From a virus, in the UHGV virus genome UHGV-0096616: a DNA stretch of 42,863 bases. The stretch is one strand, 5' to 3'. Made by a program: the position numbers and the translations under genes. Under the pieces are notes generated by a model, which worked only from the letters and a program-made list of their open reading frames with translations, did not search any database and was not told the DNA's origin. Shown here in pieces: positions 1 through 39,789 of the stretch. The stretch's first letter is position 1, and every line of letters begins with the position of its first letter.

Positions 1-219
1 ATATATCAAACAAAATAACCCTGATTAATGAATTATTACGTTTATCATGTTAACTCATCATTATTACATCATCATTGTAAATAATTAAATTAACTTCCAT
101 AACATTAAAATATGTATCCACTGACGCTTTTTTACATAACGAAGAATTGACCATTTTGTCCTGTTGTGCCTTAATGTAAGTACCGTCCACGGCGTGGGAC
201 ATACTTCAAGGAACCTTTT

Positions 220-6646: not shown

Positions 6647-6749
6647 GTTAAATCTCCAGATAGTCGCAGCACCCGTTGCGCCGCATATCTGGTTATTCTA
6701 TTACCCAAAAAACCACATATGGATAGAAAGACTGTAAATACGAATAGAT

Positions 6750-6802: not shown

Positions 6803-6822
6803 TACTGTATAAATATACAGTT
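6803..6822 (+). promoter_or_regulatory. LexA (SOS) box TACTGTATAAATATACAGTT
   Basis: CTGT-N8-ACAG with AT-rich spacer, 17/20 match to consensus TACTGTATATATATACAGTA as I recall it, ~20 bp upstream of the 6842 start. Confidence 0.7.
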
Positions 6823-6841: not shown

Positions 6842-7099
6842 ATGCAGCAGTATCACTATCCACTGGAAGACGGATTTACCGAAAGGATTCACACGCCGGG
6901 AGGCGTCAGGTCACTGGTGGAGGGATCGCACTTGATGAAATTACTCCGGGATCTCGATAAGGATGGATTTAATGTCGATGGCCCACTTGCCGAACTGACT
7001 GCACTGATTAACTACGTCACCAGCTCACAGATGTCTATGCAGGATCTGCAAACACATCTCGACTATTGTGCCGAACAATTACGAAAACAAACCAGATAA
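6842..7099 (+). CDS. small SOS-controlled protein (85 aa), putative antirepressor; shares a C-terminal domain with the Bro-N protein
   Basis: ATG with GGAG RBS; LexA box upstream; C-terminal ~50 aa align by eye with the C-terminus of the 7415-8110 product. Confidence 0.45.
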   Translation: MQQYHYPLEDGFTERIHTPGGVRSLVEGSHLMKLLRDLDKDGFNVDGPLAELTALINYVTSSQMSMQDLQTHLDYCAEQLRKQTR

Positions 7100-7414: not shown

Positions 7415-8110
7415 ATGACAGCTACAAAAAGCACGTCCATTTTTTCTTTCGAATCCCAAGCCGATATACGAGTAATCGTCATTAATGGTGAGCCATGGTT
7501 TATCGCTTCAGATGTTTGTCGGGCTATAGGCATAGCAAACCATCGAGATGCTGTTCGAAAACTTGATGATGATGAGAAGGGCGTCGCTTCAACCGACACC
7601 CCTGGCGGTGAGCAAGAATCGATCATCATCTCCGAGTCAGGCCTCTACACACTGATCCTCCGCTGCCGCGACGCAGTGACACCAGGCACTATCCCATACC
7701 GCTTTCGTAAATGGGTTACAGGTGAGGTTCTTCCTCAGATCCGCCGCACCGGAAGTTACATTAAAAACTCGCTCCCGCAGGAAGAGCGCATAAAGATGGT
7801 TGCCGACCAGGTAGCCAACGCCACAGCATCAGCAGTGATGCAGGCGATGAAGATAGAGAACAAAACCTACAGTGCCCCACTGAAGCCCGGCTACCGCAGC
7901 CTGATTCATTCGCCGTCTGGTGTTCTCGGCCTGACGGAGAACTCACTGCTGATGAATCTGCTGAACCAGTTACAGGACGACGGGCACGACGTATCGGGCG
8001 CGGCGGCGGAGCTGACCACCATGTTCTGCTACATCGTCGGTGTGAGCAAATGCCTGCGTGATATCCAGACACACGCGGAGTACATCAACGACAAGGCTGG
8101 GTTCTTCTGA
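7415..8110 (+). CDS. Bro-N domain protein (231 aa), putative antirepressor
   Basis: N-terminal Bro-N-like domain; C-terminal domain homologous to the 6842-7099 product; RBS AAGG. Confidence 0.65.
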   Translation: MTATKSTSIFSFESQADIRVIVINGEPWFIASDVCRAIGIANHRDAVRKLDDDEKGVASTDTPGGEQESIIISESGLYTLILRCRDAVTPGTIPYRFRKWVTGEVLPQIRRTGSYIKNSLPQEERIKMVADQVANATASAVMQAMKIENKTYSAPLKPGYRSLIHSPSGVLGLTENSLLMNLLNQLQDDGHDVSGAAAELTTMFCYIVGVSKCLRDIQTHAEYINDKAGFF

Positions 8111-8180
8111 CGGCGGCGGCACAGGGACGTGCCTTTAAATAATTCTGTACAGATTGCAGACTGGGGGTGAATAGCGTACT

Positions 8181-8197
8181 ATTACCTTAAAGGTAAA
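8181..8197. promoter_or_regulatory. palindrome ATTACCTTAAAGGTAAA (site 3) just downstream of promoter (-35 TTGCAG 8154-8159, -10 TACTAT 8177-8182)
   Basis: Dyad overlapping -10/+1 and adjacent to the AAGGAGG RBS of the 8209 ORF. Confidence 0.5.
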
Positions 8198-8208: not shown

Positions 8209-8376
8209 ATGACAGCGTTGAAAAATCGTACTCAGCACAATGAACAAGCCAAGCAATGCTGGGATGTCATTGGAAAAGTTATGCTTGGCCGCGCAAGCAA
8301 AGAGCGCGACAAGGATATGGTTTACCAGACAGGAACATCTTTCAGCGACTTCAAGGCGGCATTTCGCTCCAAATAG
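8209..8376 (+). CDS. small hypothetical protein (55 aa)
   Basis: Strong RBS AAGGAGG 7 nt upstream of ATG; first gene of a two-gene accessory unit. Confidence 0.4.
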   Translation: MTALKNRTQHNEQAKQCWDVIGKVMLGRASKERDKDMVYQTGTSFSDFKAAFRSK

Positions 8377-8921: not shown

Positions 8922-8930
8922 TGTGACATG

Positions 8931-9227
8931 TCACGTTCCTTTTCTGAATGATAGCCGTTCGAAAAATGATGACATTCCACCGCAGACAATAGCAAAGATG
9001 ATCCCACCAAAGAAGAGAAGGCCAGCCTGCCACCACTCCCACCGCCATACATCCACAGCACCAACCATACCAACAATCGCTCCAACAAATGGAATATAGC
9101 TCACGATGAAAGCAATGGGGGCTGCAATTATCCAGTGCAATCCCCACCATGATTCAAGCCCAGCCATAATTGCTGCCAACTGAAAAAGACCAACGACGAT
9201 ATAAACAATGAATCCTATCGCTTGCAT
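8931..9227 (-). CDS. small Trp-rich integral membrane protein (98 aa, ~3 TM helices)
   Basis: AGGTGA RBS; hydrophobic helices; lies between the structural operon and the moron island. Confidence 0.5.
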   Translation of the reverse strand: MQAIGFIVYIVVGLFQLAAIMAGLESWWGLHWIIAAPIAFIVSYIPFVGAIVGMVGAVDVWRWEWWQAGLLFFGGIIFAIVCGGMSSFFERLSFRKGT

Positions 9228-25484: not shown

Positions 25485-25501
25485 ATTACCTTTCAGGTAA
25501 C
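25485..25501. promoter_or_regulatory. palindrome ATTACCTTTCAGGTAAC (site 4) with -35 TTGACA at 25464-25469
   Basis: Dyad 17 bp downstream of a consensus -35; faces the noncoding leader and tRNA. Confidence 0.5.
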
Positions 25502-26101: not shown

Positions 26102-26118
26102 ATTACCTTAAAGGTATA
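26102..26118. promoter_or_regulatory. palindrome ATTACCTTAAAGGTATA (site 5) inside a promoter (-35 ATGACC 26092-26097, -10 TATAAT 26115-26120)
   Basis: Dyad between -35 and -10 with 17-bp spacing. Confidence 0.5.
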
Positions 26119-26145
26119 ATCATGAAAAACTTCAAGGTAATTAGC

Positions 26146-26940
26146 ATGTTTGAATCGTTTAAAGAGCTGTTTTTATCTACTGCCAATACTGCCGTGAATA
26201 GAGCCAAAAACCCTGTGCTTGGTGCTTTTGTTATGTCCTGGTGCGCCTTCAACTGGAAATCAATTCTTTATCTATTTTTTAGCAAATCAAACATAATAGA
26301 TAAAATTTCATATATCTCAGATAACAGCACATGGAAAACTGTTATGTTTTATCCATGCTTATCTGTAATTGCTATCTGCTGCCTATTACCATGGGTAAAC
26401 AATATCATTAACGTATGGCAAGCAAAGCCTCTTGATAATAATGACTCAATCGAAAATCACCTGAAGGCAAGAAAAATCCAGCGTGAAACAAGACTGCAGA
26501 GGTTATTGGCTAAAAAAGATGTTACATACGACAAAGTTAAGACTGGCGCGGAAAAAGACATCCAAGAGATGAAAGAAGAGATTATTCGATCAAAGAATAG
26601 TATGGGGGAATTGACTGCCGAGTTGAAAGCTAAAGATGACGAATTGAGATCCGCCAGTGCTCAGTTAGCAGCTCTAAATCATTCATTAAAAGAGATATCG
26701 GAAACTCTTGGAAGAATGAATGAGGCATATAATACCCTCCAAAATGATTTCGACGAATACAAACTCAAATACCCTGAAAAATCTCAAATAAAAAGCCTTG
26801 CACTTGGCAACGGCCAAACAATTAGCAACTTTTTGGAGCAACACAACTTATCCGGATTAAAATCTGGTAAGCCAAACGTTTTTAATAACTTTGGTGTTCT
26901 ATCTGGATTATCAGGTTTCGAGGATAAAAATAAAGACTAA
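26146..26940 (+). CDS. AT-rich accessory (moron) membrane protein with long C-terminal coiled coil (~264 aa); candidate superinfection-exclusion/abortive-infection factor
   Basis: Two predicted TM helices then coiled coil; visibly low GC; opposite strand to the late operon; own promoter and terminator; start set at ATG 26146 (AAGG RBS) because the track start at 26122 abuts the -10. Confidence 0.5.
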   Translation: MFESFKELFLSTANTAVNRAKNPVLGAFVMSWCAFNWKSILYLFFSKSNIIDKISYISDNSTWKTVMFYPCLSVIAICCLLPWVNNIINVWQAKPLDNNDSIENHLKARKIQRETRLQRLLAKKDVTYDKVKTGAEKDIQEMKEEIIRSKNSMGELTAELKAKDDELRSASAQLAALNHSLKEISETLGRMNEAYNTLQNDFDEYKLKYPEKSQIKSLALGNGQTISNFLEQHNLSGLKSGKPNVFNNFGVLSGLSGFEDKNKD

Positions 26941-28412
26941 GCATATGGATCGTACTCGGTAAGCGCCTTGCCTTGCTGGTTCTGCTGCCCGGGAAGTCGC
27001 AGGCGCTTTGACACCGGGAAAGCAAACGTCAGCAGTAGCGCATCGCCTTTACCCGGCGAACGCCCAAGCCGCTCCTTGATATCTTCCTTCGGTTCGATAA
27101 CGATTTTACCGTCCACTCGAACTTTGTACTCTGCCGCCGACAGGTCGTCCGCTGTTTCCTGGTCATCCAGCATGCCGCCCAGCCTCAGCCATGTCTTGCA
27201 TGCATTGAACATCTCCCCACGCTTGTTAAGCATCTGCGGGTCAGTGGACGCACCGCCGAACGGAACAAGTTGCCATGTACGTCCCCAGCCATCACCGATT
27301 GACTTCAAACCGGTTCCGTAACCGAAGTCGATGAACACCGCGTCAGCCTGGTACTGGTCTTCAAAGTCAGCGATACGCTTCGCCATAATCAGATCGTCGG
27401 TGGTCTTGTTGCCAGTCCACAACACCTTACTGTGCAGCCCCTGCCGCAGGTATATCACAGCGTCATCAACGCCGGAGTATGCAGGGTCAACGCCGATTAT
27501 CACCGGAGCATGTGCCACCTGCGCAGCAGTTACCACCCGTTTCATTGCCTCGTCAGTAAGACCGGTAGGGATAAACTGCAATTCAGATGCATCAGGGAAT
27601 ATGCCGCGCACACGGATTTTAACGAAGTCGCTGTCTTCCCCGTAGTCATCAACCCATTTCTGCAACTGCTGTTTGTTGGTGCCTTCCACCGTCCGGCTGT
27701 CAATCTGCGCAGTTTTCCAGCGGTGTTTATATTTGCGGAAACATTCGCGGAAACGCCCGGTATTACGCGTCGGGTTCCCGAACGCCACCCAGATGATTTC
27801 GGTGTCTTCGTCCGTCAGCGCACCCTCTGCTACCTCCCACACCAGATCGGCAATGTTGGATGCTTCGTCGAAAACCACGATGATGCGTTTGCGCTCGTTG
27901 TGTAGTCCGGCGAATGCCTCAGTGTTGTGCTCAGACCAGGGGATTGCGTCAGCTCGCCACCGCTTGTCGTGCCCAGGATCATTGCTGTACATCGCGGTAG
28001 CGGTACAGGTAAACCAGTCTTTCGTGATGGCAAGGTTCGACCACTTGATAATTTCCGGCCAGGTCTTCGTTCGTAGCTGGTTGTCGGTGTTGGCGGTCAC
28101 CACGACCTTACAATCCTCGCAAGTGGACATGCCCCAGTTGATCAGCATTGAGATGAATGCGGATTTACCAATACCGTGACCAGAAGCGCGTGCCAGCATA
28201 AGCGGCTGATATCGCGTCTCTGGATTCTGCAGGTGATCACGTATCTCTCGGAACGCATCGGCCTGCCACTGACGTGGACCGGTGGCATGTGCCAGTTCAG
28301 TACCCTCTTCCCCCCACGGGAACGCATAGAGGGCATAGCCAAGCGGATCGTGAGTGAACCCTGCAATATCCTCGATCAACTGCTCTTCAGGAGATAACGC
28401 TGTATCTGTCAC
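26937..28412 (-). CDS. terL: terminase large subunit (491 aa)
   Basis: Walker A-like ASGHGIGKS in the N-terminal ATPase, acidic nuclease-type C-terminal half, position after terS. Confidence 0.85.
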   Translation of the reverse strand: MTDTALSPEEQLIEDIAGFTHDPLGYALYAFPWGEEGTELAHATGPRQWQADAFREIRDHLQNPETRYQPLMLARASGHGIGKSAFISMLINWGMSTCEDCKVVVTANTDNQLRTKTWPEIIKWSNLAITKDWFTCTATAMYSNDPGHDKRWRADAIPWSEHNTEAFAGLHNERKRIIVVFDEASNIADLVWEVAEGALTDEDTEIIWVAFGNPTRNTGRFRECFRKYKHRWKTAQIDSRTVEGTNKQQLQKWVDDYGEDSDFVKIRVRGIFPDASELQFIPTGLTDEAMKRVVTAAQVAHAPVIIGVDPAYSGVDDAVIYLRQGLHSKVLWTGNKTTDDLIMAKRIADFEDQYQADAVFIDFGYGTGLKSIGDGWGRTWQLVPFGGASTDPQMLNKRGEMFNACKTWLRLGGMLDDQETADDLSAAEYKVRVDGKIVIEPKEDIKERLGRSPGKGDALLLTFAFPVSKRLRLPGQQNQQGKALTEYDPYA

Positions 28413-29005
28413 TGATTACCATCCTGACGTTCTTTGAGTCGCTTCCTGGCTGCTGCTATGCGATCAGCAATTGTCACATTCACATTAACATCCAGACGTT
28501 CTTTGAACGCGTTGACATCAACATGCTTACCAATCAGTTCTAGGTTCTTCACCTTGTCAGGCCATTTAATTTTTTTGAGGATTGTCTCTATCGAATCCTC
28601 GTTCATGTTCATGATGGTCGATGACAGATCAAAGCCACTAAGCGTAGTGCGCCAGATTTTCGGCCACTCACGGATTGGTTTAAGGCTCCCATCGTCGTTG
28701 AGGATATCGATCACGTCCATCTGGTCGATCTCCACCAAGCGCATGAGAACGTAATCAGCACTGACGCGCATTCGTTTGTTGCGCTCCTCCATCAACTCGG
28801 CAATCCGTTTTTGAATGCGTTCATCGCGCATCATGACACTGGCTTTAACTGCCGCTGTATTTGGGGAGAATCCTGCGTTAATCGCAGCCTGAGTCTGGTT
28901 TTCAGGCGTTTTGATGTATGACTGGCAATAAGCCTCCTGCATTGCTGTGAGCGGCTTAAATTGCGTTGATTTGCGTTTATAGGTTTTAGGTTCAGCAGGC
29001 ATCAT
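28409..29005 (-). CDS. terS: terminase small subunit (about 198 aa)
   Basis: Overlaps the terL start; start moved to MMPAEP because the longer track N-terminus is translated from operator-like repeats. Confidence 0.6.
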   Translation of the reverse strand: MMPAEPKTYKRKSTQFKPLTAMQEAYCQSYIKTPENQTQAAINAGFSPNTAAVKASVMMRDERIQKRIAELMEERNKRMRVSADYVLMRLVEIDQMDVIDILNDDGSLKPIREWPKIWRTTLSGFDLSSTIMNMNEDSIETILKKIKWPDKVKNLELIGKHVDVNAFKERLDVNVNVTIADRIAAARKRLKERQDGNQ

Positions 29006-29021
29006 AACCACCGTGGTAATA

Positions 29022-29038
29022 GTTACCGTTGTGGTAAT
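29022..29038. promoter_or_regulatory. palindrome GTTACCGTTGTGGTAAT (site 6) at the start of the late operon
   Basis: TTACC-N5-GGTAA dyad 17 bp upstream of the terS start, with extra GGTAAT half-sites nearby. Confidence 0.45.
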
Positions 29039-29044
29039 AGTACC

Positions 29045-29074
29045 ATGCAAAATAAAGCCGCCATAGTTGGCGGC
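29045..29074 (-). terminator. intrinsic terminator on the - strand upstream of terS (GCCGCC-aactat-GGCGGC then TTTATTTTG)
   Basis: Hairpin plus U-rich tract. Confidence 0.5.
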
Positions 29075-29123
29075 AGTATTCAAAACCCGTCAAATTCATC
29101 ATGCATAATCTACTCGTGACATG

Positions 29124-29471
29124 TCACACTATTAATTTCGTTTCATGCCAGCCTTTAGTCACCCAGCATTGCGAGTCACCATTACACGGGCATGAATTAA
29201 CTGGAACTCTCTCGCCGCACTTACCGCAACGTTTTCTGCTGATCGATTTTATACGCCCGCGCACACGTGCATCATCCTGGCGGATCAGCAGCGCGATGTA
29301 CTCGGCCATTTCATAGGGATCGCGACCAGGGCGCCGGGCGGCGCAGTTCCGCGCTAGCATTTCCTGCTCCTGCTTATCCAGCACCAGTTCAATTTTGCGC
29401 TCACCGGCGGCGGACTGCCGAGCGCGCTGCGCGGCTTTGCGTTCTGCGGGGGATTTAGCCACGAATCGCAC
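29124..29471 (-). CDS. hypothetical basic protein with C-terminal Cys-rich zinc-ribbon-like motif (115 aa); possible late-gene regulator
   Basis: Motif CGKCG...CPC; last gene before the late-operon control region. Confidence 0.4.
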   Translation of the reverse strand: MRFVAKSPAERKAAQRARQSAAGERKIELVLDKQEQEMLARNCAARRPGRDPYEMAEYIALLIRQDDARVRGRIKSISRKRCGKCGERVPVNSCPCNGDSQCWVTKGWHETKLIV

Positions 29472-35299: not shown

Positions 35300-35884
35300 A
35301 TGAAAAGTATCCAGGACGTCCGCAGGCAAAATCTCAACGACTTGATCGACCGTGAATTCAATGGTGTTCAGACGCGGATGGCTGAAAAACTTGGAACTCA
35401 GGCAAATCTGGTAAACCGCTGGGCTCTTGGTAAGAAGGTTATCGGCGATCAGGTTGCGCGAAAAATTGAAGCTGCCGCCAATAAACCCCGTAACTGGCTT
35501 GATATCGATCGCTCGCTTTCTCAGGAAGGTTTTCAGCCTGTCGGCCCAAGCGACATTGGCCAGCTGGCGGCTCACAACCTGGAACGCTGGATGAGCGAAA
35601 GCCGCGACCTTTCAACACAGGGAAAACTTCACCGCGCATCCGGCGTAGCCCAGGTGACAATCAGCCGCCTGTTAAACAATGAGGTCAGCGTTTCCATTTC
35701 CACCCTGGAGAATGTTGCATCCGCATTCGGGCGTCACGGCTATGAATTACTGATTCACCCGCACGACCCTGCGACCATCAACTATGATCGCTCGCGCTAC
35801 GCATTGTTACCCGAAACCGAGAAAGCAAAGATCGAAAGTTACATTGAATTTGTCATCAACCAGAACGAAAAAAACAAACAATAA
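35300..35884 (+). CDS. CI-like prophage repressor with two HTH domains and no S24 peptidase domain (194 aa)
   Basis: Two XRE-type HTH segments; divergent from cro-like operon; followed by a terminator. Confidence 0.6.
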   Translation: MKSIQDVRRQNLNDLIDREFNGVQTRMAEKLGTQANLVNRWALGKKVIGDQVARKIEAAANKPRNWLDIDRSLSQEGFQPVGPSDIGQLAAHNLERWMSESRDLSTQGKLHRASGVAQVTISRLLNNEVSVSISTLENVASAFGRHGYELLIHPHDPATINYDRSRYALLPETEKAKIESYIEFVINQNEKNKQ

Positions 35885-39598: not shown

Positions 39599-39789
39599 AC
39601 AGGGCATCACCAGCAGATTTAAGAAAATGCCTTGAAACTGCAAACATGCTTGCACACAGCGGGATCAGGTTTGTTCCAATTCCCGCTGTCACTGATGCTG
39701 AATTTGCAACACTGTCAGCAATATTCGAAAACAAAATTGAATCACTGGCAGCAGAAGCAGAGATGGAAGAAAATCAGCAGAACTATTAA
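39595..39789 (+). CDS. small hypothetical protein (64 aa, acidic C-terminus)
   Basis: ATGA-coupled to the methyltransferase stop. Confidence 0.35.
   Translation: MNRASPADLRKCLETANMLAHSGIRFVPIPAVTDAEFATLSAIFENKIESLAAEAEMEENQQNY

Follow-up and report, generated by a model that had tools for sequence, protein, structure and literature searches.

Upstream of the small terminase gene terS, the prophage studied here carries an intrinsic terminator, followed by a predicted promoter overlaid by two candidate repressor operators. Our preferred model, in which we have moderate confidence, is that the terminator ends the early operon and that a separate promoter, repressed by the prophage repressor Rep, drives terS and terL. 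Promoter activity, the transcription start site, terminator efficiency and the binding of Rep to the two operators (O1 and O2) are the parts of this model that we infer from the DNA. As the first-pass annotation had proposed, this is the control region of the first late (packaging) operon, combining a terminator, operators and the terS start, and all of the elements it had placed on the - strand (terminator, operator repeats, upstream open reading frame and terS start) are present. This terminator-promoter-operator layout is one that the epsilon15 record already annotates, and it agrees with the published Rep/Ant system; it is an ordinary arrangement and not a new antitermination switch. The value of the model for annotation is that the packaging operon of a very common E. 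coli prophage type would have its own promoter directly under the prophage repressor. The late genes would therefore be silenced at the source and not only through the early-to-late cascade, which bears on leaky expression, spontaneous induction and the design of phiV10-based reporter phages.

Gene order and features of the terS upstream region

The window (the whole stretch of DNA that was analysed, 42,863 nucleotides) is a segment of an E. coli chromosome with a phiV10/epsilon15-like (Uetakevirus) prophage, whose late genes lie on the - strand. Approximately 1.4 kb around the terS control region is 93-99% identical to phiv142-3, TL-2011b, EC.W1-9 and phiV10, and 502 of 5,426 complete E. coli genomes contain the 156-bp control region. 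In both the phiV10 and the phiv142-3 records, a cro-side early operon (replication genes, nin-like genes and a small regulator-like gene) leads to the terminase genes terS and terL and, behind them, to the structural and lysis genes, with cro through lysis in a single orientation. The features of the region, in the order in which the - strand is read, are as follows.

29124..29471, - strand: 115-aa open reading frame (PHROG 536, 'transcriptional regulator'), TGA stop at 29126-29124
29116..29127, no strand: perfect palindrome of 12 bp, GTGACATGTCAC, sharing bases with the TGA stop of the 115-aa frame
29080..29106, - strand: eight-codon remnant (MHDEFDGF*) of a 77-aa open reading frame, from the alignment of relatives
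29049..29074, - strand: intrinsic terminator, hairpin GCCGCCA-ACTA-TGGCGGC at 29074-29057, then the U-tract TTTATTTT at 29056-29049
29037..29045, - strand: predicted extended -10 element TG-g-TACTAT, from conservation in 50 relatives
29022..29038, no strand: candidate operator O1, ATTACC-acaac-GGTAAC, 0 core mismatches
29004..29020, no strand: candidate operator O2, ATTACC-acggt-GGTTAT, 1 core mismatch
28409..29002, - strand: terS, small terminase subunit (Pfam Terminase_2, E=1e-29; phrog_51)
28412-26937, - strand: terL, next after terS

The terS start lies within the region, as had been claimed, at a slightly different position: the start codon is the ATG at 29002-29000, which is invariant across relatives, and not the ATG at 29005, which varies. 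We also considered and rejected a physical genome end (cos or pac) here. The records of phiV10, Tyrion, epsilon15 and SPN1S all start inside the terS upstream region, at window positions 29123, 29121, 29048 and about 29077, respectively. The idea was dropped because these starts differ, because the phiV10 record is simply cut behind the stop codon of its last gene, and because Tyrion is reported to be circularly permuted (PMC5754475).

Conservation was scored column by column in an alignment of 50 distinct sequences upstream of terS, taken from phage records and IMG/VR relatives. The terminator stem has seven pairs, six of them G-C, with a 4-nt loop and 7 U in the 8-nt tract, and the hairpin appears in both the MFE and centroid folds. 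Terminator-like hairpins are not rare as a class (seven found in the window vs 3.4 expected), and the one upstream of terS is the strongest of the seven. It is annotated independently in the phiV10 and epsilon15 records and is kept in 47 of the 50 relatives; in the remaining three (L067, L087 and L088) a different upstream gene runs straight into terS without a terminator. The sole stem change among relatives, from A-U to G-U, gives no compensatory evidence. That sequence conservation begins at GATGAATTTGA is explained by the eight-codon remnant, which represents the final codons of the 77-aa frame; this frame is intact in approximately 24 relatives (e.g., L009, 737-970).

Small genes have been inserted repeatedly between the PHROG 536 gene and the terS terminator, which makes this junction a hot spot. 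They include the 77-aa frame, an 85-aa frame that has a LexA box and a promoter of its own, TTGAC(G/T)-17-TACTGT, and a 109-aa frame; further examples are at L078 866-1123, L197 2238-2495 and L087 815-1144.

Behind the terminator lies gcaTGgTACTAT, with TG at 29045-44 and a hexamer at 29042-37. The TG is invariant in all 50 relatives, including the three without a terminator, as are T-12 and the A and T at 29038-37 (T-7 included), and A-11 is present in 49. The base after TG is free (G32/T13/A5), and the mid-hexamer positions vary (C, G or T). This column pattern, TGnTAnnAT, is that expected of an extended -10 promoter, and the transcription start predicted from it is near 29030 on the - strand. 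Extended -10 promoters can do without a -35 element. None is found at the expected position, where TATGGC (29065-29060) matches at 1 of 6 bases, and a consensus scanner, which demands a -35, makes no promoter call at terS. In phiv142-3 the hexamer is TGCTAT, a weaker -10, and overlap with the operator flank could be the source of part of the -10 conservation. A second, weak promoter match (9/12, GTGACA-18-CATGAT) lies between the 115-aa gene and the terminator, where it overlaps the 12-bp palindrome; this stretch is replaced or interrupted in relatives.

The -10 element and the operator stand in the same register at three other promoters of the window, each of which has a -35 at 17 bp. At all of them the last T of the -10 is the first T of TTACC.

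36004: control promoter, TTGACA-17-AATTAT
32837, - strand: control promoter, TTGATT-17-TTTAAT
8154..8197, + strand: control (sister) promoter, the '8177 promoter', TTGCAG at 8154-8159, 17 nt, TACTAT at 8177-8182

The sister promoter is fused to ATTACC-ttaaa-GGTAAA (8181-8197) and is followed by a 55-aa open reading frame at 8209-8376. The reported recurrence of TACTATTACC at this promoter is borne out, with exactly two copies in the window, at 29033-29042 (-) and 8177-8186 (+). The two loci share it because this 10-mer consists of the -10 hexamer TACTAT and the left half of the operator, fused together. The three relatives without a terminator retain TGnTAnTAT and both operators. Because of this, we regard the promoter and operators as the probable conserved core and the terminator as a putative accessory insulator.

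Operators and the Rep/Ant switch

Upstream of terS, the - strand reads GGTACTATTACCAC aac GGTAACTATTACCAC at 29044-29013. The repeats, previously described as a direct repeat with GGTAAT half-sites, are indeed there, but they are two tandem 17-bp palindromes, ATTACC-N5-GGTAAT, with centres 18 bp apart. O1 overlaps the final 2 nt of the -10 element and the predicted +1, and O2 takes in the Shine-Dalgarno sequence GGTGG (29012-29008) and reaches to within 1 nt of the terS ATG. In the alignment the operator half-site bases are invariant (50/50) and the spacers are variable; every relative retrieved keeps identical TTACC/GGTAA half-sites, and the right half of O2 is a perfect GGTAA in 12 of the 50.

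The same palindrome occurs throughout the prophage. With at most one mismatch, the core TTACC-N5-GGTAA has 16 sites in the window vs 0.64 expected, a number reached in none of 100 shuffles, and ATTACC-N5-GGTAAT with at most three mismatches has 42 matches vs 14.5 expected. The good copies are almost all intergenic.

35182/35230 and 35942/36004: operator copies flanking rep on both sides
32837/32899: operator copies between the replication genes and the nin-like genes, 62 bp apart
41086: operator copy upstream of int
25486 and 26103: operator copies in the terL-portal gap
6751, 7131 and 8182: operator copies in the antirepressor region
29023 and 29005: operator copies upstream of terS

phiV10, epsilon15 and Tyrion have the same operator set at orthologous places, and in the epsilon15 GenBank record seven copies are labelled 'protein_bind: repressor', including one at 12..27 directly before terS. 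Three lines of evidence, namely the palindrome in the immunity region, the cognate rep gene in the same genome and the label at the orthologous epsilon15 site, suggest that O1 and O2 are members of the Uetakevirus Rep operator class and that Rep is the protein that would bind them.

The spacing of the operators follows two patterns. At two early promoters, the flanking pairs have an invariable centre-to-centre distance of exactly 62 bp: 35942/36004 and 32837/32899 in the window, 31953/32015 and 35070/35132 in phiV10, 32555/32617 and 35907/35969 in epsilon15, and 34195/34257 and 37265/37327 in Tyrion. This spacing would fit DNA looping by a tetrameric Rep. The terS pair is instead adjacent, at 18 bp, and operators 17-18 bp apart also occur in a cluster beside the epsilon15 repressor gene (33341, 33358).

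The components of the switch that would act on these operators are encoded in the window.

35300..35884, + strand: rep, prophage repressor, 194 aa, homologue of the SPC32H repressor (PDB 5D50_A, E=4e-42)
6803-6822, + strand: LexA box TACTGTATAAATATACAGTT, a match to CTGT-N8-ACAG
6842-7099, + strand: ant, small antirepressor, 85 aa, homologue of PDB 5D50_E (E=4.1e-47), behind the LexA box

A larger Bro-N protein, labelled anti-repressor in relatives, is encoded nearby at 7415-8110. In SPC32H, ant is under LexA control. Because the window has close homologues of the SPC32H Rep and Ant (PDB 5D50, 5D4Z) and a LexA box before ant, we conclude from these matches that the prophage carries an SPC32H-type switch. 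The SPC32H Rep is described in outline as a tetramer on palindromic sites that is taken off DNA by Ant (PMC9638917, PMC9986798). The Rep of the window differs in being of the phiV10 type, which is reported to be 42% identical to the epsilon15 type (PMC9782041). In ZX5, a close relative whose repressor has the same sequence as that of phiV10, overexpression of the repressor lowered holin and endolysin transcripts by >99.9% (PMC9782041), a result in keeping with a direct action on late promoters, though no proof of it.

The closest described counterpart of the control region is the orthologous locus of epsilon15 (AY150271.2), where the annotators' predictions, which is what these features are, comprise a rho-independent terminator at 39646-39672 and the 'repressor' site before terS. 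Like the window, epsilon15 has this same hairpin (GCCGCCGACTATGGCGGC followed by TTTGTTTT), TGtTACTAT, an ATTACC-N5-GGTAAT operator and then a second copy, and a gp49-family gene with GTGACATGTCAC at its stop. It differs in that the spacing from the gp49 stop to the terminator is approximately 14 nt shorter, whereas the window has the extra-frame remnant. A wider parallel is provided by the stoperators of mycobacteriophage L5 and the C1 operators of phage P1, in which one repressor acts at many dispersed sites, including late regions. As proposed here, late genes are silenced directly in those phages and not only by a cascade. Stoperators in L5 lack symmetry, depend on orientation and affect elongation, whereas the sites in the window are palindromic and mostly overlap promoters.

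The 115-aa protein and its palindrome

The open reading frame upstream of the terminator is the orthologue of PhiV10p55, epsilon15 gp49 and N15 gp46. Its start is probably the GTG at 29462, which gives 112 aa as in most homologues. The family has four invariant cysteines (CxxC-N8-C-N7-C). There was no sequence match to the protein in Pfam, NCBIfam, PADLOC or the PDB, and a Foldseek search of the PDB gave nothing significant (E values of at least 1.4). In an AlphaFold2 model (pLDDT 73.7), residues 33-78 form a helix-helix core that is predicted with confidence, and the predicted fold resembles ribbon-helix-helix (RHH) proteins. From these features, it is probably a DNA-binding protein whose ribbon-helix-helix-like core is followed by a Cys4 tail.

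The palindrome GTGACATGTCAC at its stop codon is a candidate cognate site of this protein and lies outside the terS promoter. A second exact copy in the window, at 8923-8934, adjoins the terminator at the end of the structural operon. Among 105 distant homologue loci, retrieved from IMG/VR with the N15 and Yersinia proteins, GTGAC-NN-GTCAC is at the stop or within about 10 nt of it in 100, and the five exceptions are truncated hits. Homologues with only 33-63% identity (N15 gp46, ZF40 gp22 and Yersinia gp13) also have it, at the stop codon or immediately behind it. The linkage of the palindrome to the stop codon of PHROG 536 genes spans four unrelated phage types: phiV10/epsilon15-like podoviruses, N15-like siphoviruses, P2-like Yersinia myoviruses and ZF40. 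Coding constraint does not explain it, because the C-terminal residues differ and some copies lie 3-9 nt past the stop.

At operon junctions, Uetakevirus genomes have two further copies, one 1-3 nt ahead of the structural-operon terminator and one next to the bidirectional terminator after terL; the latter is missing from the window, in which a 272-aa opposite-strand frame replaces the region. The epsilon15 copies (L089) are at 2142, 19517 and 39612. N15 (L199) has three exact copies, at 28550, 33237 and 39269, one of them located 24 nt before the -35 of the promoter that serves the antirepressor operon, and in Salmonella and Klebsiella relatives a LexA-box promoter has its -35 6-7 nt downstream of the stop-codon copy. 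In Vibrio phage K233 (L008), which also carries PHROG 536, a copy (GTGACACGTCAC, 6714-6725) lies approximately 20 nt upstream of the terS start codon.

The MatP site matS is the 13-bp GTGACRNYGTCAC. It has the same half-site as the palindrome but, in E. coli, a 3-bp spacer as compared with 2 bp here. We rejected an analogy to MatP/matS: no 13-bp version is present in the window, N15, epsilon15 or the Yersinia phage, and hhalign against E. coli MatP gives a probability of 0.2%. A literature search for GTGAC-NN-GTCAC in a phage context turned up no report, nor any known binding protein or function. The widespread RHH/Cys4 family with its strictly linked 12-bp palindrome is possibly a new lead that deserves a separate look. 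That the two form a conserved, undescribed gene-plus-site module is a long shot at present. If it is real, the module could represent a novel class of regulator that acts on terminators or the borders of operons, and the idea of the first-pass annotation would then be restored in part; alternatively, it could regulate SOS-linked promoters.

Proposed mechanism and alternative readings

In the proposed mechanism, the hairpin and U-tract (29074-29049, -) would stop transcripts of the early-right operon, and the extended -10 promoter TGgTACTAT (29045-37), without a -35, would initiate the terS-terL transcript near 29030. O1 and O2 (29038-22 and 29020-04) would cover the region from +1 through the ribosome-binding site. 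In the lysogen, Rep on O1 and O2 would block initiation, either at open-complex formation or at promoter escape, and bound Rep would also act as a roadblock to any read-through. Upon DNA damage, LexA would be cleaved, Ant would be made and Rep would be stripped from all operators, such that the packaging operon would be derepressed along with the other phage promoters. Simultaneous derepression of every promoter would leave early-versus-late timing unexplained, and an extra activator or antiterminator may contribute.

The main competitor to the Rep-repressed promoter, though one we judge unlikely, is that there is no working promoter at terS. Instead, transcription of terS-terL would start at the early-right promoter and pass a terminator that is leaky or antiterminated, and O1 and O2 would serve solely as stoperator-like Rep roadblocks that keep read-through silent in the lysogen. 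Several observations are consistent with this reading: (i) There is no -35 and no promoter call by the scanner. (ii) In L067, L087 and L088 the upstream gene reads directly into terS without a terminator. (iii) The operators lie within the transcribed leader. (iv) The genes from cro to lysis all have one orientation. However, in 50 relatives the TG and the key -10 positions are invariant and the bases around them are not, the -10/operator register is exactly the one seen at three canonical promoters, and the terminator is strong (6 G-C pairs, 7/8 U). These observations argue against the roadblock reading.

The first-pass annotation had suggested a different role for the terminator, namely that it gates the late genes and that the 115-aa RHH/Cys4 protein, then described as a zinc-ribbon protein, is a late regulator acting by antitermination or by operator-dependent activation. 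Its attraction is that the terminator lies directly before terS and that a probable DNA binder is encoded at the end of the early operon, with the palindrome GTGACATGTCAC 41 nt upstream of the terminator. Further copies of the palindrome adjoin two other terminators in epsilon15, phiV10, Tyrion and phiv142-3, and the timing of late expression is otherwise without explanation. The layout also recalls the lambda Q/pR'/tR' module, in which a small regulator gene ends the early operon and a terminator precedes the late genes.

Several observations count against this reading. A conserved promoter is predicted downstream of the terminator, and with the promoter placed there, read-through or antitermination is unnecessary, nor does our model call for operator-dependent activation; moreover, the three relatives that lack the terminator keep the -10 and operators. 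The operators match the sites of the repressor, being copies of a phage-wide operator, and lie over the end of the -10, the +1, the leader and the Shine-Dalgarno sequence. They would therefore be repressing sites and not class I or II activator sites. GTGAC-NN-GTCAC differs from the operator and has no fixed position relative to the terS promoter: its distance to the terminator is approximately 27-41 nt in Uetakeviruses without inserted genes (about 27 nt in some, 41 nt in others) and >240 nt with them, genes of 77-109 aa being inserted between the 115-aa gene and terS in many relatives. The protein has no homology to the Q, N, Ogr or RfaH families. Unlike lambda, the window has no Q-family protein, its promoter follows the terminator and the gene adjacency is not conserved. 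In N15, which has both a Q-like gene and a 115-aa homologue, the latter lies behind the Q-like late regulator and not beside the late genes. The P2-like Yersinia phage with a homologue has its own 72-aa regulator gene after gpD, where ogr lies in P2, and homologues in ZF40 and Vibrio phages occur in other contexts. A late-regulator role for the 115-aa protein is therefore doubtful, and more so than the roadblock reading; the palindrome is the sole element here that is able to revive terminator control, which we consider an outside chance.

Small terminases commonly recognise repeats within or close to the terS gene itself, so the tandem repeats by terS could be a pac site bound by the small terminase. 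Tyrion is reported to be circularly permuted (PMC5754475), which implies headful packaging and hence a pac site somewhere. This explanation is very improbable, as the same palindrome is present at about 14 other intergenic sites, including both flanks of rep, whereas a pac site should be unique, and the epsilon15 authors label the site as a repressor site. Equally remote is control at the RNA level, in which the inverted repeats would fold within the 5' leader and thereby mask the Shine-Dalgarno sequence: a nested hairpin that takes in GGUGG is possible for the leader (-10.4 kcal/mol), but the fold is no better than that of shuffled sequence (z=-1.24; 24 of 200 shuffles as good), no Rfam match is above threshold, and invariant half-sites with variable spacers and no compensatory changes are the signature of a protein-DNA site. 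An RNA family or riboswitch at the leader was likewise rejected, the sole candidate being a sub-threshold rseX match (27 bits vs a cut-off of 50, E=0.35).

Two further observations concern the terL-portal operon gap. A conserved candidate promoter, TTGACA-17-TACCTT, with TTGACA at about 25460 (+), overlaps the operator at 25486-25500 and points against the late genes. From its epsilon15 counterpart (2932-2975) the transcript would be approximately 350 nt and would end at the annotated terminator at 2559-2582; it could be a regulatory or antisense RNA. In the same gap, in place of the phiV10 p03 region, the window has the 272-aa opposite-strand frame (26103-26940, +; ATG at 26122). The encoded protein has an N-terminal hydrophobic segment and a coiled coil, with PADLOC and Pfam matches that are weak and to the coiled coil only, and just before its start (TTACCTTAAAGGTATAATCATG) a candidate repressor operator overlaps a perfect TATAAT.
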